Shown piece after piece: positions 31,379 to 55,689 of a stretch of DNA of 64,000 nt (positions are counted from its first letter, which is position 1; every line of letters starts with the position of its first letter). The translations under genes were made by a program, and so were the position numbers. Under the pieces are notes generated by a model, which worked only from the letters and a program-made list of their open reading frames with translations, did no database searches and was not told the DNA's origin. This DNA is from Flavobacteriaceae bacterium (GTDB lineage Bacteria; Bacteroidota; Bacteroidia; Flavobacteriales_C; GCA-002722245), in NCBI GenBank assembly GCA_964230605.1, contig CAXRIN010000046.1:11793-75792 (forward strand), given 5' to 3'.

Positions 31379-32326
31379 ATGAAAGAGCAAGAAATTCAAG
31401 AGGAGGTAGAATATTCTATTATAAGTCCAGTGTACGGCGCTGAAAAAATAGTTGGTGAGCTTGTTACACAGATTGAAAAATATATATCGCGTATTTCTGA
31501 TAGTTATGAAATCATTTTAGTGGAAGATAACTCTCCCGATGATTCTTGGAAAGAAATACAAAAGGTATGTCAAGAAAACACAAGAGTAAGAGGTGTTCGC
31601 TTGAGTAAAAATTTTGGACAGCATAAAGCTATATCTTGCGGTTTAGATTTATCTAAAGGGAAATATGTTTTTGTAATGGATTGTGATCTTCAGCATCACC
31701 CTAAGGATTTCAAACTTTTTGTTGATGCAATGAAGAGTAATGATATTGTTTATGGAATCCATTCAAAAAGGAAGCATTCATTTTTGAAAAATCTAACAGC
31801 TGGTATTTTTTATTATTTCTATAATCTGTTGTCAGATGTTAAACACGATTCTTTTGGCGGAGAGTTAAGCAATTTTGTGTTAATGAAGCGGAAGGTTGTA
31901 AATTCTCTTTGTCAAATAAGAGAAGAGAATTCCCATTTTTTATTGAATCTAAGATTAATAGGTTTTAATTATTCTATAGTAGAAATAGAGCATTTAGTGC
32001 GGTACGAAGGGAAAAGTTCCTACAAGTTAAAAAAGTTAATTACGCATGCGGTTGATGGGTTGACGGCTCACTCAGCAAAGATTTTATACCAATCCATATA
32101 TCTGGGATTAATATTGTTTTTAATAAGTATAATTTTCGGATCATATGTTTTGTTAAAGTTTTTTATAAATGGGTCTATACCAGGATATACTTCAATCATT
32201 TCGATTATGATATTTCTTGCAGGTATAATTTTATTTATGCTTGGAATAACAGGTTTGTATATTGGTAAAATTTTCACTCAAGTAAAAAACAGACCTCTTT
32301 ATCATATTAATGAAATTTTAAATTAA
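31379..32326 (+). CDS. GT2 polyprenyl-phosphate glycosyltransferase (GtrB/ArnC/DPM1-like, catalytic domain + two C-terminal TM helices)
   Basis: GT2 motifs (SIISPVYG, VEDNSPDDS, VMDCDLQH DxD-like). Two C-terminal TM helices, as in GtrB/ArnC enzymes that make Und-P-sugars. First gene of the long plus-strand operon. Confidence 0.65.
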   Translation: MKEQEIQEEVEYSIISPVYGAEKIVGELVTQIEKYISRISDSYEIILVEDNSPDDSWKEIQKVCQENTRVRGVRLSKNFGQHKAISCGLDLSKGKYVFVMDCDLQHHPKDFKLFVDAMKSNDIVYGIHSKRKHSFLKNLTAGIFYYFYNLLSDVKHDSFGGELSNFVLMKRKVVNSLCQIREENSHFLLNLRLIGFNYSIVEIEHLVRYEGKSSYKLKKLITHAVDGLTAHSAKILYQSIYLGLILFLISIIFGSYVLLKFFINGSIPGYTSIISIMIFLAGIILFMLGITGLYIGKIFTQVKNRPLYHINEILN

Positions 32327-32332
32327 AAGATT

Positions 32333-33139
32333 ATGGCTTCGTACGGATTTGATAAACAAAACTCTGACTCTGATATTATTAAGGAAAGTCTTAAGTTAAA
32401 TGGTTTTTACCTTTTAAAGGGGGTTTTAAATGATCAAGAGATTAAAACTATACGTGAAAAATTAGATTATTATTTAACAGTACAGGAATCAGAGTTTAGT
32501 CAGGATGAATTAAAGTCGATTAAAGAAGGAAATCAGTTGAGAGCTCCTTTACAATATGACGAAGTATTTCTGGATATGATTATGAAGCCTCAAATAGTTG
32601 ACTATGTTAAAAGTCAACTAGGAGATTATTACATACTTCATCAACAAAACTCAATTATTAATAAGCCTTCAACTGAGCATCATCAATCTGCATGGCATAG
32701 AGATTTACCGTATCAGAATTTAGTGATTTCCAGGCCTTTAGCTGTTAATGCTTATTATTGTATTGATGATTTTACACCAGAAACAGGCTCTACAATTTTT
32801 GTTCCACATACGCATAATGTTGAGTTTTACCCAAGTGAGGAATATCTTAAAGAAAACTCGGCTCAGTTAACTGCTGCTCCTGGAGATGTGATATTATTTG
32901 ATACTATGATTATTCATAAGGCCGGTTATAATAGTTCTAATCAAATAAGGAGAGGTATTAACAATATTTTCGCCAGACCAATTTTAAGACAACAATTGGA
33001 TTACAATGTGTTGTTAAAAGAAAAATATGCTAATCATTCTCCTGAGATAAAAAGAATGTTAGGTTTTGATTGTTCTGCTCCTTATTCGGTAAAAGAGTTT
33101 AGAGACAGACAGTTAGATAGACAAAAAAATAAAAAATGA
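32333..33139 (+). CDS. phytanoyl-CoA dioxygenase (PhyH)-family Fe(II)/2-oxoglutarate oxygenase
   Basis: AWHRDLPY (HxD), distal His in IIHKAG, and Arg near the C-terminus (IRRG). 268 aa. Confidence 0.65.
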   Translation: MASYGFDKQNSDSDIIKESLKLNGFYLLKGVLNDQEIKTIREKLDYYLTVQESEFSQDELKSIKEGNQLRAPLQYDEVFLDMIMKPQIVDYVKSQLGDYYILHQQNSIINKPSTEHHQSAWHRDLPYQNLVISRPLAVNAYYCIDDFTPETGSTIFVPHTHNVEFYPSEEYLKENSAQLTAAPGDVILFDTMIIHKAGYNSSNQIRRGINNIFARPILRQQLDYNVLLKEKYANHSPEIKRMLGFDCSAPYSVKEFRDRQLDRQKNKK

Positions 33140-33909
33140 AGGAGATACATATTGTTAAGGATATTGATGAACTTTTGAATGATTCGGCAAAGCTAGAGTC
33201 GTTAAAAGAGAAAATAGTTGATGACGATTTAGTAGTAATAAAAAACGTGATTGATAAAAGTTTAATTGCTGAACTAAAGAGTTATTTAGTGAATGTTGGA
33301 AGATCTTCTTTTCCTAATTATGAAAAAATAGAATTAGGAGCAAAAGATTTTCATAGGATTAATAATAATGATCCAAGAGCATATGTTAAAGGAACTTTTC
33401 ATCAGTTTGTGTTTTATCCTTGGAATCAGAATTATTTTAACCTTTTTGATCAATTTAAGAAAGCATACAGGGTGAAAAATTTATTAAGTAACATTGGTGA
33501 AGAGGAATTTCTTGATCCAAAGGAAGGTGATGATTTTACTGCAAGAATTGCTTTTCAGTTTTATCCTAAAGGAAATGGATTTTTAAATGAACACAGAGAT
33601 CCAGTAGATAGACACCAAATAGTTGTGCCAATATTAATCATGTCTGAAAAAGGAGATGAGTTTAATGAAGGTGGAGTGTATTTCAGATATGAAGATGACG
33701 AAAAAGTTTATGTAGAAGATTATACTCAAATTGGTGATGTAGCTTTCTTTAAAGCTTCTTTAAGACATGGAGTTGAGGATATTGATCCGGGAACTGATTC
33801 TAATTGGTTAGACTTTAAGGGTAGATGGATGGGCTTACTCGCTGTGAATAAATTTTTCAATGTAACATCTGTAGCTAATGCTGTTGATTTGAATTCCGAA
33901 AAAAAATGA
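33136..33909 (+). CDS. hypothetical protein, possible second Fe(II)/2OG-oxygenase (cupin) family member
   Basis: NEHRDPVD (HxD-like) and ...LRHGVEDI distal His with a spacing reminiscent of 2OG oxygenases. No other recognisable motif. 4-nt overlap with neighbours. Confidence 0.3.
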   Translation: MKEIHIVKDIDELLNDSAKLESLKEKIVDDDLVVIKNVIDKSLIAELKSYLVNVGRSSFPNYEKIELGAKDFHRINNNDPRAYVKGTFHQFVFYPWNQNYFNLFDQFKKAYRVKNLLSNIGEEEFLDPKEGDDFTARIAFQFYPKGNGFLNEHRDPVDRHQIVVPILIMSEKGDEFNEGGVYFRYEDDEKVYVEDYTQIGDVAFFKASLRHGVEDIDPGTDSNWLDFKGRWMGLLAVNKFFNVTSVANAVDLNSEKK

Positions 33910-34826
33910 GTGTTCTTTCGTGGGAAAAATTAGGGTTGGTTTTAGCTCCTTCTCAGGAAGTTAAATGGATGACAACATTTGCTAGTAGTACAGCTGTAAA
34001 AGTAGTGGATGAAAAGGAAGGACTTATTGATATTTTTGTTACTGGAAGGGATGATATGAATCGGAGTCTTATTGGCTGTGTGAAGTTTAATGTTTTTAAG
34101 CATGAGGTTATCGAAATCTCTAAGGAAGAGGTCCTTAATTTAGGTCCATTAGGAACTTTTGATGAAAACGGACAATCTTACCCTTCGTATTTATTTGATG
34201 GGGATAAAGAGTGTTTGTACTACACAGGTTGGTCTCCAAGTGTACTTACTCCTTTTCAGAATTTTGTAGGTTTAGGAGTAAGAAAAAAAGGAGAGGAAAA
34301 GTTTTGCAGATATTCAAACGCTCCTGTTTTAGATAGAAATAATGAAGATTATTCATCTATTGGTTCCTGTTATGTTTTAAAAAGTCAGGATCATTTTAAG
34401 ATGTGGTATACTGCATTTAGAAATTGGGAAAAAACAGAAAATGGTACAAGGCACTATTATCGAATAAAATATGCTCATTCAAAGGATGGCGTGAATTGGG
34501 AAAGAGATAATGCTGTATGTATTGATTTTGAAAGTGAAAATGAGTACGCAATAGCCAGACCAACTGTTTTTGAGTTGAATGGAGAATATAATATGATGTA
34601 TTGTTACCGTGGTGATAAATACAGATTAGGTTATGCTACTTCAAAGGATGGTATTAACTGGACAAGGAGGGATAATGATCTTATGTTTGTAGGGGATGAT
34701 TTAGAATTTGATTCATATGAAAGGAATTATCCAACTGTGTTTAGCTTAAACGGAGATCATTATTTACTTTATTCCGGAAATAATTATGGCGAAGCTGGCT
34801 TTGGAATAGCAAAACTTATAAAATGA
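33906..34826 (+). CDS. five-bladed beta-propeller protein of the GH43/GH32/GH130 superfamily (glycosidase/phosphorylase-like)
   Basis: Repeated blade motifs SKDGVNWER, SKDGINWTR and W-Y-T... patterns typical of this propeller clan. 306 aa, no signal peptide. Confidence 0.35.
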   Translation: MSVLSWEKLGLVLAPSQEVKWMTTFASSTAVKVVDEKEGLIDIFVTGRDDMNRSLIGCVKFNVFKHEVIEISKEEVLNLGPLGTFDENGQSYPSYLFDGDKECLYYTGWSPSVLTPFQNFVGLGVRKKGEEKFCRYSNAPVLDRNNEDYSSIGSCYVLKSQDHFKMWYTAFRNWEKTENGTRHYYRIKYAHSKDGVNWERDNAVCIDFESENEYAIARPTVFELNGEYNMMYCYRGDKYRLGYATSKDGINWTRRDNDLMFVGDDLEFDSYERNYPTVFSLNGDHYLLYSGNNYGEAGFGIAKLIK

Positions 34827-35602
34827 TACCATTATTTGACAGTCTTACACATCCTACTTTACAAGGAAATTGGCTTGATAGAGATACCGTAGCTACTTTT
34901 GAAGATTTGAAAAATCAAATGGATAAGAGTAATGTTTCTTTTGCTATAGCATGTGGCATAAATGGAAATGCTTACTCTCATGAAAGGTATTATTTAGAAT
35001 CAACTAAAATTAAGGGGCTCGTTCCAATTGCAAGATTAGATATGTCTGTTAAAGACATTGAGAAAGAAATTGAACGAATTTCCGAAATAGGTTTTAAAGG
35101 AATAAAAATTCATCCTAGGTTTGAAAATTTTGATTATTCAGAAGATATATTAGCAAGAGTCTTTATAAAATGTCAGGATTTAGGGATTGTTGTTCATTGG
35201 TGTTCTTTCTATTATTCTAAAATAGAGAATTACCCAAGTTTTGATCCTTATTTTTCTATAATAAGAACATTGAAAAAAGCTCCAAAAACTACATTAGTAA
35301 TTGTACACGGTGGGGTTCATGATATTATGAAATATGCTGAATTAGCAAGGTTTAATGATAATATTTTAATTGATTTATCTCTTACGCTTTTTCAGTATCG
35401 AAATACAACTCATTACCAAAATATTATCTTTCTTCTATCTAAAATTGACCGGAGACTTTGTCTGGGGTCAGATCATCCAGAAGTAAGTTTAATGCAATTA
35501 AGAGAGCAGTTTGATGAGTTTTGTGCTATGGATATACCAGTAGAAAAACTTTGGAACATTGGTATTCGAAATATTTCCAAAAAATATAATATTGAAATAT
35601 GA
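34823..35602 (+). CDS. amidohydrolase-2 (TIM-barrel metal-dependent hydrolase) family protein
   Basis: N-terminal FDSLTHPT (FDxHxH-like, degenerate) and C-terminal GSDHP motif typical of the Amidohydro_2 family. 259 aa. Confidence 0.45.
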   Translation: MIPLFDSLTHPTLQGNWLDRDTVATFEDLKNQMDKSNVSFAIACGINGNAYSHERYYLESTKIKGLVPIARLDMSVKDIEKEIERISEIGFKGIKIHPRFENFDYSEDILARVFIKCQDLGIVVHWCSFYYSKIENYPSFDPYFSIIRTLKKAPKTTLVIVHGGVHDIMKYAELARFNDNILIDLSLTLFQYRNTTHYQNIIFLLSKIDRRLCLGSDHPEVSLMQLREQFDEFCAMDIPVEKLWNIGIRNISKKYNIEI

Positions 35603-36801
35603 AAATTGCATTTTTAGGTGCTTCGGGAACTCAGTTATCGCCAATACAATATGCAGTTAGTAAAGGGTATGAAACAATAACTATTGATAATATTCCTTCT
35701 AATCCAGGACATCAACTTTCGGATAAGTATTTTAATGTTAGCATTACAGATAAGGAGAAGGTTTTAGAGATTTGCAGAACTGAAAATATTGATGGTGTTG
35801 TAGGATATGCTTCTGATTTAGCAAGTATAACCCAGGCATTTATAGCTAAAAAATTATTTTTAGTTGGTTCGGGAATTGAAACAAATTCAATTTTAGTAAA
35901 TAAAGATAAGTTTAGAGAATACTTAAAACAAGAAGAGCTTCAGGATATCTTTTTTCAAAAGATACATTTAAATGAGTTTGATAATTTGTTTGATATTGTA
36001 AAGTCGTTTCCAGAATCACATAAATTAATTATTAAGCCAACAGATTCGGCAGGGTCAAAAGGTGTTTATATTTTTAATGCTGGTGATTTTGATCAGGCTA
36101 TAGCAAAGGAAGCGTTTAACTTTTCAATATCGAAAACAATTATTATCGAAAGCTTTTTGGAAAAGCTTAAACCTCAGGTTTGTGGAGATGGATTTATGTA
36201 TGATAATAAATTGGCTTTTATAGATTATGGAGATGGTTATTTTCATGATTTTGAAAAATCTCCTGTTCCCTATGGAGAAACTTTTCCAGGGACACACTCA
36301 CCAGTGATTTATCAAAAAATAGGAGAAAAACTGGAAGAGATATTATGCAAATTGAATTATCAGGGACCGTTTAATTTTGATGTTTTTGTTTTAGCAAACG
36401 GAGAGATTTTTATTAATGAAATAGGACCAAGAAGCGGAGGGAATTTTATACCTGATATAATTGGATTGAAAAATGGATTTGACTTTGTAGGAGAAGTAGT
36501 TGAGTTCTTTTTGGGTAGGAAACCTAGCTTTCCTGAAGTTAATAACACTAGAGGTGTAGGCTCTTATATGATTCATAGTCATAATGAAGGTATTTATAAA
36601 GGAGTAATCCTACCGGACTCTTTAATGGTAAATGTGGTGAAAAAAAGGTTATTTATTAATCCTAATGATAAGGTTACTATGTTTCATTCGGGAAATCATT
36701 CTATAGGTAATTTAATATTGGAATTTACTTCTGTTAAGGACTTACCAGAGGTATTTAAAAATTTTTATGAAAGGATAGAAGTTCAGCTGTTAGATATTTA
36801 A
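35599..36801 (+). CDS. ATP-grasp domain ligase (carboxylate–amine ligase-like)
   Basis: 400 aa. Pre-ATP-grasp Rossmann-like N-terminus (KIAFLGASG). Central ATP-grasp features (IIKPTDSAGSKGV, E..I..EIGPRSGG). Confidence 0.5.
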   Translation: MKIAFLGASGTQLSPIQYAVSKGYETITIDNIPSNPGHQLSDKYFNVSITDKEKVLEICRTENIDGVVGYASDLASITQAFIAKKLFLVGSGIETNSILVNKDKFREYLKQEELQDIFFQKIHLNEFDNLFDIVKSFPESHKLIIKPTDSAGSKGVYIFNAGDFDQAIAKEAFNFSISKTIIIESFLEKLKPQVCGDGFMYDNKLAFIDYGDGYFHDFEKSPVPYGETFPGTHSPVIYQKIGEKLEEILCKLNYQGPFNFDVFVLANGEIFINEIGPRSGGNFIPDIIGLKNGFDFVGEVVEFFLGRKPSFPEVNNTRGVGSYMIHSHNEGIYKGVILPDSLMVNVVKKRLFINPNDKVTMFHSGNHSIGNLILEFTSVKDLPEVFKNFYERIEVQLLDI

Positions 36802-36825
36802 AACAGATTTGATTTGAACTAATAT

Positions 36826-36833
36826 TACTTTTG
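36826..36833 (+). promoter_or_regulatory. candidate Bacteroidota sigma-A -7 box (TACTTTTG = TAnnTTTG) ~93 nt upstream of wzm
   Basis: Exact match to the TAnnTTTG consensus in the 124-bp gap upstream of wzm. A TTTG is present ~12-17 nt upstream. Position-only evidence. Confidence 0.2.
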
Positions 36834-36925
36834 GGTTGAAAATTACCCTCAAAACCTCCTGTTATTAAAAAATATAAGGTAGTTTCCTTATTTCTTTTTA
36901 GTTTAGTCGAGCTAAAAGTTCTAAT

Positions 36926-37789
36926 ATGTCGGAATCCAAGTGGACTGAAATTATTTTCCCAAAGAGGTCTTTAGGAGCACTAAATTTAAAAGAGTTATTT
37001 AAGTATAAGGATCTTATTTTACTTTTTGTAAAGAGGGATTTTGTAGCTTATTATAAACAAACAATTTTAGGTCCATTTTGGTATTTACTTCAACCAATAA
37101 TTCAAACAGTTATATATGCTTTAACTTTTGGAGCTGTATTTAATGTTAAAGAAGGTACGAGTATACCTTCGTTTTTATTTTTCTTGTCGGGAAATGTTAT
37201 GTGGTGGTATTTTGCTCAAAGTTTAGTGAAAACATCGAATACTTTTACTGAAAATGCTCATATATTCGGTAAGGTTTATTTTCCTAGGTTAACAGTTCCT
37301 GTGTCTGTTTTGATATCTAATATGATAGGGTTTGGAATCCAGTTTTCATTATTTATTGTAGCGTATCTGTTCTTTATTTTTGGAAAAGGAATGGATTTTT
37401 ATCCAAGTATTAAAGGGTTGTTATTTTTTCCCATAATTATTCTTAATATGGCAATATTAGGACTTGGATTAGGTTTGATAATATCTTCGTTAACAACAAA
37501 GTATAAGGATTTTAAACATTTTGTAGGATTTGGAGTACAGTTATTGATGTTTGCGTCTCCTGTAATATTTCCTTTACAAGTAGCTGAAAGTAAGTTTGGA
37601 GCGTTTGCTAAATTGATCCAATATAATCCGATGACACCAATTATTAGAAGTTTCAGAGCTTCGTTTTTTCCTGATTTTGTATTTAATTACGAGGATTTAC
37701 TGTACAGTGGAATATGTGCGGTAGTATTTTTCTTATTTGGCGCCTTTTTGTTCAATAAGACGGAGCAAAACTTTATGGATACGGTATAA
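36926..37789 (+). CDS. ABC-2 type polysaccharide export permease (Wzm/KpsM/NodJ-like)
   Basis: 287 aa. 6 TM segments with the ABC-2 arrangement. Immediately followed by the Wzt ATPase. Confidence 0.8.
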   Translation: MSESKWTEIIFPKRSLGALNLKELFKYKDLILLFVKRDFVAYYKQTILGPFWYLLQPIIQTVIYALTFGAVFNVKEGTSIPSFLFFLSGNVMWWYFAQSLVKTSNTFTENAHIFGKVYFPRLTVPVSVLISNMIGFGIQFSLFIVAYLFFIFGKGMDFYPSIKGLLFFPIIILNMAILGLGLGLIISSLTTKYKDFKHFVGFGVQLLMFASPVIFPLQVAESKFGAFAKLIQYNPMTPIIRSFRASFFPDFVFNYEDLLYSGICAVVFFLFGAFLFNKTEQNFMDTV

Positions 37790-37790
37790 T

Positions 37791-39083
37791 ATGAGTAATG
37801 ATATAGCAATAAAAGTAGAAGGATTATACAAACAATACCGTCTTGGAGTTATTGGAGCGGATACTCTAAAAGATGATTTAAAACTTTTATGGGGAAAAAT
37901 TCGAGGAAAGTCAATATCTGATTTGTATAATATTGATTCCAACGATAGAATGGTTGGTAATTCCGAATATGTATGGGCTCTTCAGGATATAAATTTTGAA
38001 GTAAAAAAAGGAGAGATTTTAGGGATTATAGGGAAGAATGGAGCCGGGAAATCAACACTGTTAAAGGTTTTGTCAAAAGTTACTGGTCCAACTAAAGGAT
38101 CAATCAAGGTAAATGGAAGGATAGCATCATTATTAGAAGTCGGTACCGGATTTCATCCAGAATTAACGGGGCGTGAAAATATTTTTCTTAATGGCGCCAT
38201 TTTGGGAATGAAAAGAGCTGAAATCAAATTGAAATTGGATGAAATTGTTGATTTCAGTGGAATAGGAAAATATTTAGATACACCAGTAAAAAGATACTCC
38301 TCTGGTATGAAGGTGAGATTAGGGTTTGCTGTTGCAGCGCATCTTGAACCTGAGATTTTAATTGTTGATGAGGTACTTGCTGTTGGTGATGCTGAATTTC
38401 AGAAGCGTTGTATCGGTAAAATGAATGACGTTTCAAAAAATCAGGGGAGAACCGTATTGTTTGTCAGTCATAATATGAGTTCTGTTATGGAACTATGTGA
38501 TAGAGGTTTGTTGATGAAGAACGGAACAGTAGCTCAAACAGGAGCCATTTCTGATATAATTCCAGCGTATTTGAATTCTTTTAAAAGTGAATTTAAAACG
38601 AAAGATTTATATCAGGTTCAAACTCGAACAGGAAATGGGAATATTGTGTTTTATCAATATGATTTATTGGATATTGATGGGAACTCAATTGATTTTGCTC
38701 TTAGTGGACAAAAATTAAGGTTTCATTTACGGCTGAAGGTTAATAAACAGGAAGATTATAAAAGGATTCATTTATCAATGAAATTTGTTGATGAAAATGA
38801 TGTGTCTCTTTTCCATGTATCAAATTCTGTTTCAAATGGTAAAGAATTTGAAGTAGTTCAAGGGAAGGAATTTCTAGATGTATTTTGTGAAATTGAAAAA
38901 CTACCGCTTCAGCCAGGAATTTATAGTTTTCATTTATTTTGTAGTGATTTGCAGAAGGTCTTTGACGAAATCAATTTTGCAGGTGAATTGAAAGTTGAGG
39001 GGGGGAATTTCTTTTCAAGCGGGAAACTTCCTGCTAAGGATTTAGGAACCTTTTTAGTTGAAAATAATTGGATAATTAAATGA
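37791..39083 (+). CDS. ABC transporter ATP-binding protein (Wzt/KpsT/NodI-like) with C-terminal carbohydrate-binding (Wzt-C-like) beta-sandwich extension
   Basis: Start MSNDIAIKVEGLY (internal Met of the tracked ORF; 1 nt after the wzm stop). Walker A GKNGAGKST, signature YSSGMKVRL, Walker B ILIVDE. ~190 aa beyond the NBD, as in Wzt proteins that recognise a terminal glycan modification. Confidence 0.85.
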   Translation: MSNDIAIKVEGLYKQYRLGVIGADTLKDDLKLLWGKIRGKSISDLYNIDSNDRMVGNSEYVWALQDINFEVKKGEILGIIGKNGAGKSTLLKVLSKVTGPTKGSIKVNGRIASLLEVGTGFHPELTGRENIFLNGAILGMKRAEIKLKLDEIVDFSGIGKYLDTPVKRYSSGMKVRLGFAVAAHLEPEILIVDEVLAVGDAEFQKRCIGKMNDVSKNQGRTVLFVSHNMSSVMELCDRGLLMKNGTVAQTGAISDIIPAYLNSFKSEFKTKDLYQVQTRTGNGNIVFYQYDLLDIDGNSIDFALSGQKLRFHLRLKVNKQEDYKRIHLSMKFVDENDVSLFHVSNSVSNGKEFEVVQGKEFLDVFCEIEKLPLQPGIYSFHLFCSDLQKVFDEINFAGELKVEGGNFFSSGKLPAKDLGTFLVENNWIIK

Positions 39084-40213: not shown

Positions 40214-40219
40214 TTTGAT

Positions 40220-43052: not shown

Positions 43053-43056
43053 GCTA

Positions 43057-46105: not shown

Positions 46106-46147
46106 AGTTCGTCTTTAAGTTTTAAATTTACAACAAATTGTAAACAA

Positions 46148-47095: not shown

Positions 47096-47098
47096 CAC

Positions 47099-47335
47099 AT
47101 GAATAAAGAATCATTTTTCAAGGAGATAGAAGAACTATTAGAGTTAGAAGGTGAATTAGAAACAAACGCTGATACTAGTATTGAAGATATACTAGAAATT
47201 GATTCTTTAGCACATATTACACTTATTTCCTTTGTTAAGGATGAAATAGGAGTGGAGCTAAAAGCTGAAGACTTTTCTGAATTTGAAACTCTTGCTGATT
47301 TGGTAAGCAAAATAGGTGAGGATAAATTCAATTAA
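47099..47335 (+). CDS. acyl carrier protein
   Basis: 78 aa, acidic. Phosphopantetheine-attachment motif EIDSLAHI. Confidence 0.8.
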   Translation: MNKESFFKEIEELLELEGELETNADTSIEDILEIDSLAHITLISFVKDEIGVELKAEDFSEFETLADLVSKIGEDKFN

Positions 47336-48090
47336 TGCTCAGTTTTACAAATCATAAAATTTTAATAACCGGAGCTTCATCGGGCTTAGGTAAAGCTGTG
47401 GCTGAATTATTAAATTCTTTAGGTGTTTATACCGTTTTATGCGGTAGAAATGAGGAGAAATTAAATAATATAAAAAACTTACTAAGTGCCCCTGAAAAAG
47501 CTAATGTTTTAGTGGTTGATTTTAATGATAACGTTTCGATTAAATCATTCTTAAAAGTTAGTGTTGAAAATTCTGGTAAGTTCACAGGGTTTGTTCATTG
47601 TGCTGGAGTTGATATTACTAAGCCATATAAATTACTTAAGGAGACCGATTTTAACTTATTATATAAATTAAATATTACAACCCCGTTTCAGTTATCTAAA
47701 GAGTTAGTGAATAAATCTTTTTTTAGTGAAAATGGAGGGAGCTTAATTTGGATGAGTTCGGTGATGGGGACTTTGGGACAGAAAGGGAAAATAGCATACA
47801 CAACAAATAAAGCAGCAGTTGAAGGATTAATTAAATCTTATGCTTTAGAGTTAGCTCCCAGAAAAATAAGAGTTAATAGTGTTGCTCCTGGAATTGTAGA
47901 AACACCATTAACAAAAGATTTATTTTCTAAGTTATCTCTTGAGAGAGTTCAGGAAATTAAAAATATGCACCCTTTAGGGTTTGGAGCACCAGGTGATGTA
48001 GCGAATTTAGTTGCTTTTCTTTTAAGTGATCAATCCAAATGGATCACAGGAACTACTCATTTTATCGATGGAGGATATCATATTCAATAA
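47335..48090 (+). CDS. SDR-family oxidoreductase (FabG-like 3-oxoacyl-ACP reductase)
   Basis: TGASSGLGKAVA cofactor motif. Catalytic YTTNK (YxxxK). TAATG overlaps with both neighbours. Confidence 0.8.
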   Translation: MLSFTNHKILITGASSGLGKAVAELLNSLGVYTVLCGRNEEKLNNIKNLLSAPEKANVLVVDFNDNVSIKSFLKVSVENSGKFTGFVHCAGVDITKPYKLLKETDFNLLYKLNITTPFQLSKELVNKSFFSENGGSLIWMSSVMGTLGQKGKIAYTTNKAAVEGLIKSYALELAPRKIRVNSVAPGIVETPLTKDLFSKLSLERVQEIKNMHPLGFGAPGDVANLVAFLLSDQSKWITGTTHFIDGGYHIQ

Positions 48091-49034
48091 TGGAGGGGTT
48101 TGATATTGTAAAACTTTCGGATGAACATTTTAAGTTGCTATTGCCTCTTTACAGCAAAGCGTTTGGTCAATCTATGGATGAACATGAACTGAGAACGAAG
48201 TTTGATACCTTAAAGATTTGTGGAGAAAAAAATGTAGGTTTTATAGCACTGAATGAAAAAGGTGAAGCTGCAGCTTTTTATGGTGTATTTCCTTGTTACG
48301 CTATTAAAGGTGATAATCAGGTTTTAATAGCACAGTCTGGTGATACTATGGTTGACGCAAAATACAGACGAAAGAAATTGTTTGTAAAGTTGGCGGAAAC
48401 AACTTTTGAGTATTGTAGAGCTAAAAATATTAAGGCTGTTTTCGGATTTCCGAATATATATTCATTTCCAAGTTTTGTTAAAAAGTTAAAGTGGACTCAT
48501 ATTCATAACATTGTTAGTTATCAGTTAAGAGTTAAGTGTTTACCTTTTATTCGTATTAGAAAACTTTTTAAGTTGAAAGAAGACTTTTTTCTTAACTATC
48601 AATTAAGGTATTTAAGGAGGCAGAGTAAAAAGGTTAAAGAATACCATTCCATAAATCAAAATATTTCGAATTATACTATTAATAAAAACAAACAATTTAT
48701 TGAGTATAAGGCCTACTTTGAGAAATACTTTCTGAATCTTTCCGGTGTAAATGTTTGGGTAAAACCTAATGCTATGTTTTTGCTGGTTGGGGATGTTGAA
48801 GATTGTGACGAAGTTACTTTTGTTGGCGTACTTGATGAGTTAAAAAAGATAGCTTTCAGATTAGGAATTCCGCATATTAGGATCCAAATGTCACCTGAGA
48901 CAAAGTTGGAGACTATGGCTAAGAAGTATTTATATAAAATGGATAATGAATACCCTGCAGGTGGAATCTCCTTTGATAGTAACTTTAATATTCATGATTT
49001 ACGTTTTGTTTTAGCTGATTACGATACTTTCTAA
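48090..49034 (+). CDS. hypothetical protein, possibly GNAT/FemAB-like acyltransferase
   Basis: Start MEGFDIVKL (TAATG-coupled to the SDR stop). ~315 aa, consistent in size with Acetyltransf_6/FemAB-like folds. No unambiguous motif seen by eye. Assignment rests on context (ACP module upstream, NodB-type deacetylase downstream). Confidence 0.25.
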   Translation: MEGFDIVKLSDEHFKLLLPLYSKAFGQSMDEHELRTKFDTLKICGEKNVGFIALNEKGEAAAFYGVFPCYAIKGDNQVLIAQSGDTMVDAKYRRKKLFVKLAETTFEYCRAKNIKAVFGFPNIYSFPSFVKKLKWTHIHNIVSYQLRVKCLPFIRIRKLFKLKEDFFLNYQLRYLRRQSKKVKEYHSINQNISNYTINKNKQFIEYKAYFEKYFLNLSGVNVWVKPNAMFLLVGDVEDCDEVTFVGVLDELKKIAFRLGIPHIRIQMSPETKLETMAKKYLYKMDNEYPAGGISFDSNFNIHDLRFVLADYDTF

Positions 49035-50053
49035 TGTTACATAAAATCTTAATATCCCTTTTTTATCGTTTCCCTTTTCTAACTAAAAAAATTTTAAGAG
49101 GGAAAGGTTTTGTGTTTATGTTGCACCGAGTGCTACCTGCTGAAGAAAGGGGTTACGAATGGAATAAAAGTTTGGCGATTTCACCTGAAGCTTTAGAAAA
49201 ATGGGTGAGCTTTTTCAAACAAAAAGGGTTTGATGTTGTCTCTATGGATGAAGTTTACAGGCGAGTGAGGAGTAAGAAATCCAAGCCTTTTGTGGCATTT
49301 ACAATGGATGATGGGTACAAGGATAATTTGACTTATGGTTTGCCAATCCTTGAGAAGTTGAATATTCCTTGCACGATTTATGTTGCCAATTGCTTTCCCA
49401 ATAATCAAGCGATTTATTGGTGGTATTTTTTAGAAGAGTACATCAATGAGAATTCTAAAATAGACTTGACCCCACTTGGGATTAGTTATTCTTCCCACAT
49501 TAGTGATGAGAACAAAAAAAGCGTTTACGATGAGGTGAGAGAGTTATTGAGAAAGTCCACCTACGCGGTACATAAAAAATTTGCCCTTGAAATTTGTGGT
49601 ATCCAAGACCTCAATGCTTTGAACAATCGATTCAATTTGACTTGGGAGGAAGTACAGCAACTTTCGGAACACTCATTGATTACCATTGGTGGACATACTA
49701 AAAGTCATGTTAGTTTGGCAAATCAAACCAAAGAAAGCGCTAATACCGAAATCCAATTGGGAACAGAAGAATTGGAAAAAAAACTCAGTCAATCTATTCG
49801 CCACTTTGCTTATCCTTATGGTTCTTTAGATGATGTTAGTAATTCACTTTTCGACCCATTGGCGCAATCAGGCTACCAAACAGCTGTTTTAAACCATCCT
49901 GGAAGTATATTTTATGATGGCTCAAATCATCTTTTTCAAATTCCAAGAATGGGTTTATCGGATGAAACCTCTAGGGAAAGATTGAGTGAATTGATGGAAG
50001 GAAAACTTCATCTTAATTTCAATGGGGTTAAGAAGAGAATTATAAGTGGTTAA
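49034..50053 (+). CDS. polysaccharide deacetylase (NodB-homology, CE4) family protein
   Basis: Motif 1 FTMDDGYKDN (TFDDG-like), His motif GGHTKSH and further CE4-like spacing. 339 aa. Confidence 0.75.
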   Translation: MLHKILISLFYRFPFLTKKILRGKGFVFMLHRVLPAEERGYEWNKSLAISPEALEKWVSFFKQKGFDVVSMDEVYRRVRSKKSKPFVAFTMDDGYKDNLTYGLPILEKLNIPCTIYVANCFPNNQAIYWWYFLEEYINENSKIDLTPLGISYSSHISDENKKSVYDEVRELLRKSTYAVHKKFALEICGIQDLNALNNRFNLTWEEVQQLSEHSLITIGGHTKSHVSLANQTKESANTEIQLGTEELEKKLSQSIRHFAYPYGSLDDVSNSLFDPLAQSGYQTAVLNHPGSIFYDGSNHLFQIPRMGLSDETSRERLSELMEGKLHLNFNGVKKRIISG

Positions 50054-50110
50054 ATGCAACATTTTATTAATAAGCATATTTGATATAACTTCGCAGTCAA
50101 TTTCACAAAC

Positions 50111-51070
50111 ATGGCGGAAATAGAATTATCTATTATAATAGTAAATTATAAAACACCAGAGTTAACCTCAAAATGCATTCAATCCATTTTTGAAAATACT
50201 AGAGATCTAACTTTTGAAATTATTCTAGTAGATAACAATTCACAGGATGGGTCAAAAGATTTCATTCTCAGTGATTGTCCCAATATCTCATGGGTTCAAA
50301 TGGATGATAATGCGGGGACTTCAAGAGGTTACAATGCAGGCGTTAAAAGTGCTAAAGGGAAGTATGTTTTAATTCTTAATTCCGATACAGAATTAAGGGA
50401 TAATGCCATAAAGAATTCATTGGATTTTCATAAAAAGAAAGAGTCTGAATGTAAAGTAGGTTTAACCAGTTGTCAAATAAAAGGTTTTGATGGGGTCATT
50501 CAATATAATTCTAATCCTAACTTCCCTTCTGTTAAAAAATATCTAGCTAAGCATCCAGTATTGTATAAGTTTGGTGCAAGGGCGCCAAAGAATTTATCAA
50601 ATGAAGAGAAATTAACCTTGCACAAATCCAATCATGAGACATCTTGGATTGGTATTGCTTTTGGTATTATAAATAAGGAAATATTTGATAAAGAGGGATT
50701 GTATTTTGATGAAGATATTTTTATGTACTCTGATGAAGTGGAGTGGTGCTACCGTTTAAAGCAATTAGGGTATAGACATTTCTTTACAGCTGATTACACA
50801 ATTTACCATGTTAACTCTGGAAGTTCTGTAACCAATGAGTGGAGGTATGGTCAAATATTCCTCTCTGAATTAATTTACTTCTATAAAGTTAAAGGTAAGT
50901 TTTACTATAACCTGATTCTTCGGTCATTGAAATATTTTTTTAAGAAGGACAAAACAACAGCTAATCAAATCGAAATAGATGTTGTAAAACGTTATGGGAA
51001 CAGAATTAAAGAAGAATATCAACCAAAAGTGAGTTCAGGTAAGACATACTTAAAATATGAGCTAAAATGA
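50111..51070 (+). CDS. glycosyltransferase family 2
   Basis: LSIIIVNYKTPELTSKCIQSI, LVDNNSQDGS and NSDTE (DxD-like) motifs. Confidence 0.75.
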   Translation: MAEIELSIIIVNYKTPELTSKCIQSIFENTRDLTFEIILVDNNSQDGSKDFILSDCPNISWVQMDDNAGTSRGYNAGVKSAKGKYVLILNSDTELRDNAIKNSLDFHKKKESECKVGLTSCQIKGFDGVIQYNSNPNFPSVKKYLAKHPVLYKFGARAPKNLSNEEKLTLHKSNHETSWIGIAFGIINKEIFDKEGLYFDEDIFMYSDEVEWCYRLKQLGYRHFFTADYTIYHVNSGSSVTNEWRYGQIFLSELIYFYKVKGKFYYNLILRSLKYFFKKDKTTANQIEIDVVKRYGNRIKEEYQPKVSSGKTYLKYELK

Positions 51071-52197
51071 AAAAAGTTTTAATTACAGGAGGTGCAGGGT
51101 TTATTGGGTCACATTTGGTGAACAAGATTCATAATGATTATGATATAGTTGTTTTGGATAATTTAAATCCGCAAATTCATGGAAAGGATAAAGATTCATA
51201 TACCTACAATTCAATAAAAGGCAAATGCGAGTTTTTTGAAGGTGATGTAAGGGATGAGTCTACCTTAAAAAGCCTCTTGAAGAACACTGATGTTTTGATT
51301 CATTTAGCTGCAGAAACAGGTACTGGTCAATCAATGTATGAGAATGCAAGATATGTTGAAGCAAATTGCTTAAGTACTTCCTATATTGCAGATTTTTTAG
51401 GGTCAAAAGAAAGCAAAATAAAGAAGGTAATTGTAGCTTCTTCGAGATCAATTTATGGCGAGGGAAAGTACAGGAGCAAAGAATTAGGAATAGTGTATCC
51501 AGACTCTCGTGAGGAAAAAGATATGGCTAATGGGGTGTTCGACTGTTTATGTCCGGTAAGCAGGGAGCCATTAGAGGTTTTGCCAACATCCGAGGACTCA
51601 AGAATTCACCCTATTTCAACCTATGGACTAACCAAGTTTTTTCAAGAGAATATTTTAGAGTCTACTTGTAACGCTTTGGGTGTAGATTTTGTAGGTTTAA
51701 GATTTCAAAATGTTTATGGTGTAGGTCAGTCTTTATCGAATCCTTATACTGGAATAATCTCAATTTTCTCAACAAGATTCAGAAAAGGGAAAGGAGTAAA
51801 TATTTTTGAAGATGGAAAAGAATCACGTGATTTTGTTTACATTGATGATGTAATTTCTTCTCTTGTAAGTTCAATAGAATATAAAGGAAAAAGTAGTCTT
51901 ATTTTAAATGTAGGAAGTGGTGAAATGACTACTGTCCTTCAGATTGCAGAAATATTAAAAGATAATATAAATCCTAACGTTTCTATTGAAATATCCGGAG
52001 CTTTTAGAAAAGGGGATATTCGTCATAACTATGCAGACCTTACTTTAATTAAGAAGGAATTTGGTTTTAAACCAACAGTTTCGATTAAAGATGGGCTTCG
52101 TAGGTTCTGTGATTGGATGTTGAATGAAGAGGAAGGAGAGGACAAATACGAAAAATCATTAAAAGAGTTAAAAGAAAAGAACTTGTTAAGTAAATAG
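51067..52197 (+). CDS. NAD-dependent sugar-nucleotide epimerase/dehydratase (extended SDR)
   Basis: VLITGGAGFIGSHL Rossmann motif. Catalytic YGLTK (YxxxK). 376 aa with insertions. Confidence 0.8.
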   Translation: MKKVLITGGAGFIGSHLVNKIHNDYDIVVLDNLNPQIHGKDKDSYTYNSIKGKCEFFEGDVRDESTLKSLLKNTDVLIHLAAETGTGQSMYENARYVEANCLSTSYIADFLGSKESKIKKVIVASSRSIYGEGKYRSKELGIVYPDSREEKDMANGVFDCLCPVSREPLEVLPTSEDSRIHPISTYGLTKFFQENILESTCNALGVDFVGLRFQNVYGVGQSLSNPYTGIISIFSTRFRKGKGVNIFEDGKESRDFVYIDDVISSLVSSIEYKGKSSLILNVGSGEMTTVLQIAEILKDNINPNVSIEISGAFRKGDIRHNYADLTLIKKEFGFKPTVSIKDGLRRFCDWMLNEEEGEDKYEKSLKELKEKNLLSK

Positions 52198-52203
52198 TGC
52201 TTT

Positions 52204-53724
52204 ATGCTATTTAACTCTTTAAATTTTCTTGTGTTTTTCCCGGTGGTATTTTTGTTATACTGCTTGGTGAAACAAAAATATCGTTCGATTTTACTACTTA
52301 TCGCGAGTTATGGTTTTTACATGGCTTGGAATCCTGTTTTTATCTTTTTAATAGTATTCTCTACAATTGTTGATTATTTCACAGGAATTAAAATTTCAAG
52401 AGCTGAGACTAACAATAAAAAGAGAGTTTTTTTGGCGGTCAGTTTGATCTCTAATTTAGGTTTATTATTCTATTTTAAGTATTGGAATTTCTTTTTAGAT
52501 AATGTATACGAAATTTTAAATTTTTTTGAGATTTCCCACACAAAAGATCATTGGGAAATTATGCTTCCAGTTGGAATTTCATTTTATACGTTTCAGACCC
52601 TATCATATACAATTGATATTTACAAGGGGAATCTTAATCCTCAAAAACACTTTGGGAAATTTGCTTTATTTGTTTCCTTTTTTCCACAATTGGTGGCTGG
52701 TCCTATTGAGAGGGCAACAAACTTAATTCCTCAACTAGAAAAGCTAACAATCATAAAAAAGGCTGATGTTGAGTTAGCAGTTTTCCAAATTGTATGGGGA
52801 TTCTTTTTAAAAATAGTTGTGGCTGATAACATAGGTATGTATGTTGATATTGCTTATGATAATTATGAGCATCTGTTTGGAGTGAAAATGTTATTACCTG
52901 TAATTCTATTTTCTTTTCAGATTTTCGCGGATTTTGCAGGTTATTCTTGTATCGCAATTGGAATTGCAATGTTTTTTGGGGTGAGATTAATGGATAATTT
53001 TAAATCTCCATATTTTTCCCGTTCAATTTCTGAGTTTTGGTCCAGGTGGCATATATCTTTAAGTACTTGGTTTAAAGATTACTTATATATTCCATTGGGA
53101 GGGAATAAAAGAGGTTCTTATCGTACTTTGCTAAATCTATTTGTTGTATTTATTGTTAGTGGAGTATGGCACGGGAGCAATTGGACTTTTGTAATATGGG
53201 GAGCAATTCATGGTGTTGTAATATGTCTCGAAAGGGTTTTGCCATTGAAAATAGATCCAAAAATTGATATTTTTCATAAGTTTTATAAATCTATTAAGAC
53301 CATTTGGGTATTTGCTCTCGTAACCCTTTCATGGTTATTTTTTAGGGCTGACTCTGTCGAACAAGCTTTAGCAATATTCATTAGTATTAAGAAAAATTTT
53401 GTTTTGACAATAAAGGACTTCGCCTGGATTGTTAAATCTAGTTTTACAACTGAAGATTATAGGGTTTTAAGTGTTTTCGAATGGCTGGTTAAAGATTTTG
53501 AAAAAGGTGAAATAACCAATTCTAATTTTGTCTTATTCAGTATTACAATTGGCGTTTTTTTAACTAACATTATGGAATTTATTAATAGAAACAAAGGGGC
53601 CGTTTATTTTGTAGAGAAAGTGGGGCGAATTAAAAAGGTTGCTTGGGTTTCTGTATTGATAATGGCTATTTTTTATTTAGGTCAGTATTCAGGGAATGAT
53701 CAATTTATTTATTTTCAATTCTGA
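52204..53724 (+). CDS. MBOAT-family membrane-bound O-acyltransferase (AlgI/DltB/PatA-like)
   Basis: 506 aa polytopic. Conserved MBOAT region FWSRWHISLSTWFKDYLYIPLGGNKRG with the catalytic His. Confidence 0.85.
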   Translation: MLFNSLNFLVFFPVVFLLYCLVKQKYRSILLLIASYGFYMAWNPVFIFLIVFSTIVDYFTGIKISRAETNNKKRVFLAVSLISNLGLLFYFKYWNFFLDNVYEILNFFEISHTKDHWEIMLPVGISFYTFQTLSYTIDIYKGNLNPQKHFGKFALFVSFFPQLVAGPIERATNLIPQLEKLTIIKKADVELAVFQIVWGFFLKIVVADNIGMYVDIAYDNYEHLFGVKMLLPVILFSFQIFADFAGYSCIAIGIAMFFGVRLMDNFKSPYFSRSISEFWSRWHISLSTWFKDYLYIPLGGNKRGSYRTLLNLFVVFIVSGVWHGSNWTFVIWGAIHGVVICLERVLPLKIDPKIDIFHKFYKSIKTIWVFALVTLSWLFFRADSVEQALAIFISIKKNFVLTIKDFAWIVKSSFTTEDYRVLSVFEWLVKDFEKGEITNSNFVLFSITIGVFLTNIMEFINRNKGAVYFVEKVGRIKKVAWVSVLIMAIFYLGQYSGNDQFIYFQF

Positions 53725-54662
53725 TGAAAAAGATAATTGTCACATACCTCATACTTCCAATTGTTTCTCTATTGATTTTCTCTTTGGTGCTCACCAGGTT
53801 TGATTCTCCTTCTAATGACTTTCTAAAAGGGATTGAGTTAAAGGAGAAAATTGCAGAAAAAGCTATTGGGCCTAAGATTATTTTAGCGGGTGGGTCCAAC
53901 TTAGCTTTTGGAATTAAATCATCAATAATTAAAGAAACTACTAATAAAGAGGTTGTAAATCTTGGAATAATGGCTGGATTGGGGGTTTCTTTTATGTCCA
54001 ATCAATTTATGGAATATGTTTCCCCAGGAGATTTAGTTGTTTTTGTCCCTGAATACACATTGTACTTTGCACCAAAGATTGAAGGTTTAAATCCTGTTAT
54101 TTTAAGTGCGGTTTATTCCTACCCTCCATCTGCCAGACATGTTGATGATTTGAATTTCATTAAACATGAACACTTTAAATTCCAATCTAGGTTTCAAAGA
54201 TTGATACAGAGTTTTTCAACTGTTCCATCTAGTAAAATTTATAGATATGAGTCCTTCGATGAAAACGGGGAAGTTAAAATAAATCATAAATCAAAAGTTT
54301 CTTTAGAGGATTTTAAAAATTATAATTTCCCAATTGATTCAAATAAAATTAATAATGAAAATTTTGAAGACTTTATTAATTACATGAAAAAGGTTAAGTC
54401 TAGGGTTGAAAATAAGGGGGCATCTTTAGTACTTAGTTATCCTCCAGGAAAAAAGGATTTTAATTTTCAAAAATCTGTTTTATTACTTAAGGAAGTTTTA
54501 AACAATAATGGATTTGAGTATTTAGGTAAACCAAGTGAGTTTGCCTTTGGTCATGACATGTTTTTTGATGATATTCCCCATTTAACTCAAAAGGGTGCAG
54601 AATTGAGAACTATAAAACTAGCCAATATTTTAAAAAAATATTTCAATGGAAAAGTTGATTAG
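53724..54662 (+). CDS. membrane-anchored extracytoplasmic partner of the MBOAT enzyme (AlgJ/DltD/PatB-like, SGNH-type?)
   Basis: Start overlaps the MBOAT stop by 1 nt. Single N-terminal TM. LAGGSNLAFG resembles an SGNH block-I region. Inference mainly from the conserved MBOAT+partner gene pairing. Confidence 0.35.
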   Translation: MKKIIVTYLILPIVSLLIFSLVLTRFDSPSNDFLKGIELKEKIAEKAIGPKIILAGGSNLAFGIKSSIIKETTNKEVVNLGIMAGLGVSFMSNQFMEYVSPGDLVVFVPEYTLYFAPKIEGLNPVILSAVYSYPPSARHVDDLNFIKHEHFKFQSRFQRLIQSFSTVPSSKIYRYESFDENGEVKINHKSKVSLEDFKNYNFPIDSNKINNENFEDFINYMKKVKSRVENKGASLVLSYPPGKKDFNFQKSVLLLKEVLNNNGFEYLGKPSEFAFGHDMFFDDIPHLTQKGAELRTIKLANILKKYFNGKVD

Positions 54663-55689
54663 TCTAAATAGACATCAGAATAATTTTGATCTGATTCGTT
54701 TTATCGCGGCAACCTTTGTCATTTTTAAGCATTCTAATGCAATTTTAGGAGTTGATGAGTATTGGTTTTTAGATTATAATTTGCCGTTTTTAGGAGTTCC
54801 TATTTTTTTTACGATTAGTGGTTACTTAATATTAACTAGTGCTATTTATTCCAAGTCATCAATAAATTACTTTTGGAAGAGATCGTTACGGATTTTTCCA
54901 GGATTAATAATCGCTTTAATATTCACTGTATTAGTAATAGGCTTGTTAGATACAAAGTTAAATTGGTTAGATTACCTTGCTAATCCACAATCTTGGAAAC
55001 ATCTAATATCAGCATCATTATATAAACTAGAATTGAATTTACCTGGTGTTTTTGTAGATAATAAAGTAACAGAAGTAAATGGATCCTTATGGACGTTAAA
55101 GTATGAATTTAGCTGCTATGTTATAATTTTTTTATTGTTTAAGGTTTTAAATAAAAAACTGTTAAAATATGGCGTTTTATTTGTTTGGATAGCCTTATTA
55201 GGAGTTAGGTTTTATTTGGGAGATAAGATAAATTATTATAACTATTCATTTCCTTTATTGCTTAATCATAATTTCAAATTTGTTATTGAATGGGGAATTT
55301 ACTTTTTCTCAGGAGGAGTGTTTTTTTATTTAAAAGATTTTTTAAACTTAAACTTTAAGTTGTTTGCATTAGCAACAATTATATATCTCATTTTATATGT
55401 ATTTCTTTTAGATTACGTTAAATATTACCAGTATTTCTATATTCCTTTAATGGTTTTTTATTTGGGGCTTTTAAAAGGAAAAACGAACTCTTTCGGGAAA
55501 TATGGAGATTTCTCATATGGACTTTATATTTATGCTTTTCCAGTACAGCAGCTTTTATGTTCATTTTTTGACTCAAAAATGGAAGGGGCAATTCTTAGTT
55601 TATTAACGCTGTTAATTGTTTTGCCTTTATCTTTTTTATCATGGAGGTTAATTGAAAAACCTGCTTTAGCTTTTAAAAATAAACTATAA
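54646..55689 (+). CDS. acyltransferase family 3 (OafA/NolL-like integral membrane O-acyltransferase)
   Basis: N-terminal NFDLIRFIAATFVIFKHS motif (conserved His). ~10 TM segments. 347 aa. Confidence 0.8.
   Translation: MEKLISLNRHQNNFDLIRFIAATFVIFKHSNAILGVDEYWFLDYNLPFLGVPIFFTISGYLILTSAIYSKSSINYFWKRSLRIFPGLIIALIFTVLVIGLLDTKLNWLDYLANPQSWKHLISASLYKLELNLPGVFVDNKVTEVNGSLWTLKYEFSCYVIIFLLFKVLNKKLLKYGVLFVWIALLGVRFYLGDKINYYNYSFPLLLNHNFKFVIEWGIYFFSGGVFFYLKDFLNLNFKLFALATIIYLILYVFLLDYVKYYQYFYIPLMVFYLGLLKGKTNSFGKYGDFSYGLYIYAFPVQQLLCSFFDSKMEGAILSLLTLLIVLPLSFLSWRLIEKPALAFKNKL

Follow-up and report, generated by a model that had tools for sequence, protein, structure and literature searches.

Do closely packed glycan genes on one strand necessarily form one operon that builds one polymer? 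The question is raised by positions 31379 to 55689 of a 64,000-nucleotide (nt) stretch of Flavobacteriaceae contig CAXRIN010000046.1 (the window; all coordinates refer to it). A first-pass annotation had described this array as a single plus-strand run with start/stop overlaps at almost every junction, encoding an ATP-binding cassette (ABC) transporter-dependent heteropolymer more decorated than typical O-antigens. Judged from its sequence, the array is an intact surface polysaccharide locus pieced together from at least three blocks with separate inheritance, each of an already known kind. The sole element without a characterized counterpart is a six-gene cassette (module A, 31379 to 36801), above all its GH130-like member. 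The rest of the array (36926 to 55689) is referred to below as blocks B and C, and the glycan genes that follow it as module D.

Gene packing in the array

The array contains 25 intact open reading frames (ORFs). Each has one stop codon, at its end; 24 are plus-strand genes, and 1 is a minus-strand gene. No pseudogenes were found among them, which closes one way in which the first-pass reading could have been overturned, namely, accessory genes that are mostly pseudogenes. All 12 of the overlaps listed earlier are genuine. Six are 4-nt ATGA overlaps (at 33136, 33906, 34823, 35599, 39080, and 51067), four are of 1 nt (47335, 48090, 49034, and 53724), and two are longer (44165/44171 and 54646). 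Another six junctions have non-overlapping gaps of at most 7 nt, and the remaining gaps measure 124, 57, 51, 49, and 42 nt. The overlaps amount to 12 of 23 junctions, or 12 of the 21 between same-strand neighbors, rather than almost every junction. In a comparison stretch of the window, from 0 to 20 kb, same-strand neighbors overlap at 8 of 16 junctions. As the rate in the array is close to that elsewhere in the window, compact, overlapping genes are the genome baseline and not a property of the array.

Nor is the array a single plus-strand run, because a gene for a family 4 glycosyltransferase (GT4) at 45071 to 46105 lies on the minus strand, convergent with the preceding gene and divergent from the next one (42 nt). 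GC content is about 32% and uniform across 31379 to 55689, and it gives no sign of recent foreign origin in any block. This base composition, a protein that carries a type IX secretion tail, and the identity of the best relatives indicate a marine member of the Flavobacteriales. The 124-nt intergenic gap on the plus strand between module A and wzm (36802 to 36925) carries a Bacteroidota -7-like motif, TACTTTTG, at 36826. The pattern TAnnTTTG has 29 matches between 31 and 56 kb, and the one in the gap before wzm is the only intergenic match. Its position weakly supports a separate transcription unit.

Mosaic inheritance among relatives

The nearest Wzt is encoded by a Flavobacteriales metagenome-assembled genome (MAG; locus L001), with 75% identity overall and about 58%, as judged by eye, over the C-terminal domain. 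The gene order in L001 is Wzm-Wzt, epimerase, two GT4 genes, a family 2 glycosyltransferase (GT2), and then ketoacyl synthase III (KASIII)-acyl carrier protein (ACP)-ketoreductase (KR)-GNAT-CE4-GT2, with an MBOAT gene adjacent. Identity to the window is 37 to 78% for most core genes and 27 to 30% for the epimerase, GT4a, and GT2b. The MBOAT gene of L001 is followed by an unannotated 290-amino-acid (aa) ORF that has no detectable sequence similarity to the SGNH partner found in the window. Absent from L001 are AsnB, the sulfotransferase, the minus-strand GT4c, and all six module A genes. In a set of 80 loci with related Wzt proteins, any one accessory gene of the array was shared by 0 to 9 (AsnB in 8, GT2c in 9, the sulfotransferase in at most 1, and GT4c in none). 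Six window proteins that we tested were singletons at 90% identity.

Module A, in turn, is found on its own. In four loci of marine Flavobacteriales (L081 to L084; e.g., PBLA01000030.1), its genes have the same order and the same overlaps, with 43 to 69% identity, and lie between genes for a TonB receptor and a DUF2306 protein; Wzm/Wzt and other glycan genes are absent within 10 kb. A closer relative (L087) has five of the six genes (it lacks PhyH), about 7 kb downstream of menA and without Wzm/Wzt; menA adjoins module A in the window too. Variants of module A stand beside Wzm/Wzt in two further loci, directly upstream in L089 and downstream in L091.

What the analysis shows is which domains the proteins have, how the genes are ordered, and that they are inherited in modules. 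The core of the array is conserved in L001, and the accessory genes and module A are variable. The array is not a single inherited unit, and the proposed single operon with one product is not supported, since module A is autonomous elsewhere, L001 lacks several genes, and the accessory genes are rare among the related loci. The first-pass annotation had itself named several unrelated pathways as an outcome that would count against it, and the outcome found here is modular and mosaic. Close packing of genes on the same strand was no sign of a single pathway here, because the relatives divide the array into blocks that can move separately.

Module A and its GH130-like protein

All six genes of module A lie on the plus strand. 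The first (31379 to 32326) encodes a GtrB/ArnC/PgfS-like polyprenyl-phosphate GT2 (PF00535, 91 bits). It has the combination that defines the GtrB/ArnC type, a GT2 catalytic domain followed by two C-terminal transmembrane (TM) helices (residues 240 to 258 and 273 to 291); its full-length NCBIfam alignments, to PgfS (175 bits) and ArnC (110 bits), are both below the cutoff. Two Fe/2-oxoglutarate (2OG) oxygenase-like enzymes had been proposed next. The call is sound for the PhyH-family Fe(II)/2OG oxygenase (32333 to 33139; PF05721, 91 bits), whose relatives in the PDB are small-molecule 2OG oxygenases. The second protein (33136 to 33909) has only a sub-threshold Pfam match (PF13640, 18 bits), though H153-x-D155 and H211, which make up the HxD...H triad, and R230 are invariant in four orthologues.

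The fourth gene (33906 to 34826), unnamed in the first-pass annotation, encodes a GH130-like five-bladed beta-propeller. Its partial PF04041 match (41.8 bits) scores above the cutoff, yet the best stretch aligns profile positions 66 to 122 of 320. The predicted model has a pLDDT of 96.6, and Foldseek placed it about equally close to GH137, GH43, and GH130 phosphorylases (TM-scores of 0.72 to 0.75; 15 to 17% identity). Searches of Pfam, NCBIfam, and the PDB found no characterized relative. We found 138 homologues; database names of family members are "hypothetical" or predicted GH43/DUF377 hydrolase and nothing further. The last two genes encode an Amidohydro_2 metal-dependent hydrolase (34823 to 35602; PF04909, 39.5 bits), for which a PDB sequence search found no relative, and an ATP-grasp ligase resembling PylC and L-amino-acid ligases (35599 to 36801; PF21360 plus weak ATP-grasp matches), which matched PDB entries 4dim (E = 1e-21) and 4wd3, an L-amino-acid ligase.

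The GH130-like family has five further contexts (L085, L086, L090, L091, and L092), comprising a Phycisphaerae MAG, an Obscuribacterales MAG, a methanogen MAG, and two metagenome contigs. A DegT-family aminotransferase is present in all five, a GtrB-like GT2 in four (L085, L086, L090, and L092), and a PMT_2 GT-C glycosyltransferase in two (L090 and L092). The family adjoins DegT in every locus inspected (L085 to L087 and L089 to L092) except the stand-alone L081 to L084. A GtrB-like GT2 is its usual neighbor, and WbqC and methyltransferases are frequent.

The Wzm/Wzt block and chain assembly

Blocks B and C (plus strand unless stated) open with the ABC-2 permease Wzm (36926 to 37789; PF01061, 63.5 bits; 61% identity to the L001 orthologue). 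One nucleotide further on begins Wzt (37791 to 39083), in which a nucleotide-binding domain (NBD; PF00005, 83.8 bits) is joined to a C-terminal carbohydrate-binding domain (CBD), Wzt_C (PF14524, 47.4 bits against a cutoff of 30.4; residues 278 to 404). The adjacent, Pfam-confirmed pair bears out the earlier description of an ABC-transporter-dependent glycan locus. The best PDB match of Wzt is the full-length Wzt of A. aeolicus (8dku/7k2t, E = 5.5e-67; query residues 59 to 380), and the C-terminal domain alone gave no meaningful match to PDB sequences. In characterized CBD-type systems, Wzt_C recognizes the chain end and so couples export to a terminal cap (PMC9445017).

The locus shares with the CBD-type O-antigen systems of E. 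coli O9a, K. pneumoniae O12, and A. aeolicus the combination of Wzm with an NBD/CBD Wzt and the clustering of cytoplasmic GT4/GT2 enzymes with the transporter; unlike those systems, it has no recognizable WbdD-like kinase/methyltransferase or WbbB-like Kdo transferase. The block adds to the CBD-type ABC-exported glycans of Bacteroidota, a phylum for which, to our knowledge, neither caps nor terminators have been described. Sulfate was also considered as the cap recognized by Wzt and was not adopted; the nearest Wzt locus has no sulfotransferase within 10 kb.

Where at least six further glycosyltransferases had been claimed, we counted five. Four are on the plus strand: GT4a (39080 to 40213; PF00534, 98 bits), GT4b (43057 to 44178; PF00534, 63.8 bits; 45% identity to its L001 orthologue), GT2b (44171 to 45019; PF00535, 103.8 bits), and GT2c (50111 to 51070; PF00535, 68 bits). 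The fifth, GT4c (45071 to 46105; PF00534, 39 bits), is the minus-strand gene that interrupts the array. A short-chain dehydrogenase/reductase (SDR) epimerase/dehydratase follows GT2c (51067 to 52197; PF01370, 149.5 bits); its Pfam alignment falls into two stretches, suggesting that about 40 residues are inserted midway through this Rossmann-fold enzyme.

Judged by family membership, two enzymes would account for amidation and sulfation. An AsnB-type glutamine amidotransferase (40220 to 42091; PF00733, 275 bits; TIGR01536 passed), with the exopolysaccharide-type TIGR03108 as its best match, probably amidates a uronic acid. A 3'-phosphoadenosine-5'-phosphosulfate (PAPS)-type sulfotransferase (42141 to 43052; PF13469, 91.5 bits), with PRSGTT and RDGR motifs in its sequence, probably adds sulfate. 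Among marine bacteria, there are known sulfated polysaccharides whose gene clusters include sulfotransferases (PMC11641403, PMC11766843).

Acyl chemistry

A compact acyl-group module follows GT4c. It consists of a KASIII of the NF006829 FabH subfamily (46148 to 47095; 263 bits against a cutoff of 249), a 78-aa ACP (47099 to 47335; PP-binding match, with a visible DSL motif), and a 3-oxoacyl-ACP reductase, the KR (47335 to 48090; adh_short_C2, 168 bits), all with 58 to 78% identity to L001. Next come a GNAT acyltransferase (48090 to 49034; PF13527, 38.8 bits), the other gene that had gone unnamed, for which a PDB sequence search found no match, and a cytoplasmic CE4 deacetylase without a TM helix (49034 to 50053; PF01522, 62 bits). 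The tight linkage of GNAT and CE4 and the conservation of the pair in two relatives (L001 and L018) suggest deacetylation followed by reacylation.

A precedent is the O-polysaccharide (O-PS) of F. psychrophilum, in which the hydroxyacyl group on the nitrogen of an amino sugar is the predicted product of fatty acid synthase-like genes (PMC6519341). The array and the wfpC-wfpG genes of that locus (PMC6519341) share a dedicated KAS, ACP, and KR inside a Flavobacteriia glycan locus. The F. psychrophilum locus, however, is Wzx/Wzy dependent and uses two synthases (for a 3,5-dihydroxyhexanoyl group) and a PglD-type acyltransferase, whereas the locus here is of the Wzm/Wzt type and combines a single KASIII with a GNAT and, closely linked to it, a CE4 deacetylase. 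No PglD-type (left-handed beta-helix) N-acyltransferase is present in the array, and Hexapep proteins are absent.

Three O-acyltransferases had been predicted at the end of the array, an MBOAT with its partner and an AT3, and all are upheld by domain or fold. The MBOAT protein (52204 to 53724; PF03062, 91.2 bits) adjoins a membrane-anchored SGNH partner (53724 to 54662), which has no Pfam or NCBIfam match but has the SGNH fold with conserved Ser and His. An MBOAT and an adjacent extracytoplasmic SGNH protein are the two components of a two-component O-acyltransferase. As in PatA/PatB, DltB/DltD, and AlgI/AlgJ, the MBOAT gene is followed, here with a 1-nt overlap, by that of an N-terminally anchored SGNH protein. 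The partner has its residues in the order Ser...DxxH, as in DltD, and its block I reads GGSN instead of the usual GDS. The last gene encodes the AT3 acyltransferase (54646 to 55689; PF01757, 82.6 bits; 50% identity to its L001 homologue).

Taken over the whole array, Pfam and NCBIfam confirmed the first-pass calls for the GtrB-like GT2, PhyH, Amidohydro_2, ATP-grasp, Wzm, Wzt, AsnB, sulfotransferase, KASIII, ACP, KR, CE4 deacetylase, SDR epimerase/dehydratase, MBOAT, and AT3 proteins. The enzymes listed earlier for sulfation, amidation, and acylation are thus all present and intact; their attribution to one operon and one product is unsupported. That the polymer is far more decorated than typical was not established. 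Every type of modification has a precedent (PMC6519341, PMC11641403, PMC11766843).

Glycan genes beyond the right edge

The boundary set at 55689 did not hold, because glycan genes continue beyond an IS3-family insertion sequence (IS) remnant (55733 to 57159, minus strand; rve and helix-turn-helix domains), which lies between the plus-strand array and convergent minus-strand glycan genes. The remnant has 32-nt imperfect terminal inverted repeats (72% complementary) and is probably inactive, given an in-frame stop inside orfB. The convergent genes, module D, span 57270 to at least 63945 on the minus strand, outside the span first reported. They encode a 536-aa multi-TM protein (57270 to 58880), an AT3 protein (58828 to 59910), a WecE aminotransferase (59911 to 61062; NF008687, 498.6 bits against a cutoff of 375), and a pair of ArnE/F-like proteins of 108 to 113 aa (61198 to 61865). 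The pair has EamA/SMR Pfam matches, and its best NCBIfam models are ArnE/ArnF, at 33 to 42 bits against cutoffs of 92 to 99. Further along are a sulfotransferase-like protein (61852 to 62739) with weak Sulfotransfer_1/3 matches and no significant BLASTP similarity to the array sulfotransferase (E <= 1e-3), and a 385-aa multi-TM protein (62788 to 63945).

For the 536-aa protein, a word-based search of 5.8 billion proteins retrieved only the protein itself. A full HMMER scan brought up 241 distant relatives, and 11 of 30 sampled had a PMT_2 match (best E value of 4.9e-7), indirect evidence that the protein may be GT-C-like. In a Psychroserpens luteolus locus (L040), the genes immediately upstream of Wzm/Wzt are, one after another, those for a GtrB-like GT2, an AT3, WecE, and a multi-TM protein of 541 aa. 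There is no detectable similarity between this 541-aa protein and the 536-aa protein, which occupies the equivalent position.

The Arn (ArnB/C/E/F/T) and Gtr/GacI-L systems decorate glycans with sugars carried on polyprenyl phosphate, and their targets include streptococcal rhamnan after its ABC export. The co-occurrence of such genes in the five GH130-like contexts and in L040 leads us to read modules A and D as parts of a similar route. Shared with Arn and Gtr are the GT2 with its two C-terminal TM helices (best models PgfS and ArnC) and a DegT-family aminotransferase; the ArnE/F-like four-TM pair and a multi-TM protein with PMT_2-matching relatives are candidate counterparts, and the parts adjoin an ABC-exported glycan locus. 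There are differences. Here the parts are separated by 19 kb and an IS element, and their matches are all below equivalog cutoffs. The aminotransferase is WecE (dTDP-4-amino-4,6-dideoxyhexose) and not ArnB, and five extra enzymes for which Arn and Gtr have no equivalent stand beside the GT2: the GH130-like protein, the two 2OG oxygenases, Amidohydro_2, and ATP-grasp.

A bolder and rather doubtful reading takes the GH130-like propeller as the marker of a widespread Arn-like pathway in Bacteroidota, Planctomycetota, Obscuribacterales, and a methanogen. The substrate of a phosphorylase-fold enzyme would then be either a sugar-1-phosphate or a sugar carried on polyprenyl phosphate. The two oxygenases, the amidohydrolase, and the ATP-grasp enzyme would yield an oxidized, amide-conjugated lipid-linked sugar, of a kind so far undescribed, that is grafted onto an ABC-exported chain. 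The reaction of the GH130-like protein, once worked out, could establish a new step in decoration with lipid-linked sugars.

Proposed pathway and alternatives

We consider it reasonably probable that the locus is composite, with an ABC-dependent glycan made by blocks B and C and a lipid-linked sugar decoration made by modules A and D, in separately inherited blocks. The glycan would carry N-hydroxyacyl and O-acyl groups and probably amide and sulfate; the substrates, step order, acceptor, and A-D link given here are those that we infer. Blocks B and C would make an O-antigen-type polysaccharide. The five GT4/GT2 enzymes would assemble a lipid-linked chain at the cytoplasmic face, while KASIII, ACP, and the ketoreductase form a short 3-hydroxyacyl-ACP, from which GNAT may move the acyl group onto a sugar amine. 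The amine could come from CE4 deacetylation or from a 4-amino-4,6-dideoxyhexose supplied by WecE. After probable amidation of a uronic acid by the AsnB-type enzyme and probable sulfation by the sulfotransferase, the finished chain end would be bound by the C-terminal domain of Wzt, the chain exported by Wzm/Wzt, and O-acyl groups added at the outer face by MBOAT/SGNH and AT3. Modules A and D would form the second, Arn/Gtr-like route, split in the window by the Wzm/Wzt block and the IS remnant. In it, the GtrB/ArnC-like GT2 would load a modified sugar, possibly derived from WecE and further altered by the GH130-like protein, the Fe/2OG oxygenases, the amidohydrolase, and the ATP-grasp ligase, onto polyprenyl phosphate. 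The ArnE/F-like pair would flip it, and the GT-C-like protein would pass it on to an acceptor in the periplasm, perhaps the exported chain.

Several observations weigh against parts of this pathway. Scans for sigma-70 promoters and for terminators found no more matches than expected from shuffled sequence. No uronic acid dehydrogenase that could supply the AsnB substrate is present in the array, and the only initiating enzyme is a WecA-like gene about 20 kb upstream in a separate Wza/Wzc locus. The first-pass annotation had deduced chain-length control by a terminal modification from the C-terminal extension of Wzt; Wzt_C is indeed above its cutoff, but Pfam and NCBIfam recognized no chain terminator of a known type (kinase, methyltransferase, or Kdo transferase) in the 25 proteins. 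For module D, the 536-aa protein has no Pfam match of its own, and neither its sequence nor its family profile has a PDB match. Modules A and D are linked through co-occurrence in other loci, and the stand-alone L081 to L084 lack DegT, flippase, and GT-C genes within 10 kb. Finally, the module A variants beside Wzm/Wzt in L089 and L091 make cooperation with blocks B and C possible.

Those same variants, together with a strand shared by all genes but one, 18 of 23 junctions of 7 nt or less, the lack of pseudogenes, and uniform GC, are what speaks for one cotranscribed operon at 31379 to 55689 acting on a single heavily decorated heteropolymer. We regard this as quite improbable: module A stands alone in other genomes, the 124-nt gap before wzm contains a promoter-like motif, and minus-strand GT4c has a divergent neighbor 42 nt away. 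The nearest relative does without AsnB, the sulfotransferase, GT4c, and module A; accessory genes are in 0 to 9 of 80 related loci, and overlap frequency is at the baseline. A different question is what the chain of blocks B and C is attached to. No WaaL ligase was recognized in the 64-kb window, so that the O-antigen assignment is tentative relative to glycans linked to protein or to another lipid. A capsule-like product or one carried by protein, for example, on type IX cargo or on another lipid anchor, would also fit the presence of type IX secretion cargo (Por_Secre_tail), the Wza and Wzc genes 20 kb upstream, and the scores of Wzm against KpsM as well. We think it unlikely, since KpsC-, KpsS-, KpsE-, and KpsD-type genes are absent, the Wzt_C domains characterized so far are from O-antigen-type systems (PMC9445017), and Wza/Wzc look like a separate locus with its own glycosyltransferase and WecA genes.

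We also considered, and rejected as highly improbable, a Nod factor-like lipo-oligosaccharide pathway. Class for class, part of the array does match, with KAS/ACP/KR as NodE/F/G, CE4 as NodB, an N-acyltransferase as NodA, GT2 as NodC, the sulfotransferase as NodH, and the ABC-2 exporter as NodIJ. However, GT2c and GT2b reach only 19 to 29 bits against NodC (cutoff of 550) and lack TM helices, and the acyltransferase is a GNAT, with no NodA-like protein present. Wzt scores 81 to 84 bits against NodI models (cutoffs of 424 to 549) and carries Wzt_C. A single KASIII and a single KR would suggest a short hydroxyacyl group, as in the F. psychrophilum O-PS.

Neighboring loci

The window contains a second, separate polysaccharide locus on the minus strand (9167 to 20337), with genes for an SLT transglycosylase, RmlC, Wza, a GT4, a WecA-like PF00953 transferase (10257 to 11306), and Wzc (11890 to 14325). 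It also encodes a second AsnB paralogue (16370 to 18253), with 32% identity to the array AsnB, and has an extracytoplasmic function (ECF) sigma factor at its upstream end. At 26062 to 27567, a trypsin-like serine protease with a type IX C-terminal sorting domain is encoded a short way upstream of the genes menF, menD, and menA at the border of the glycan locus.

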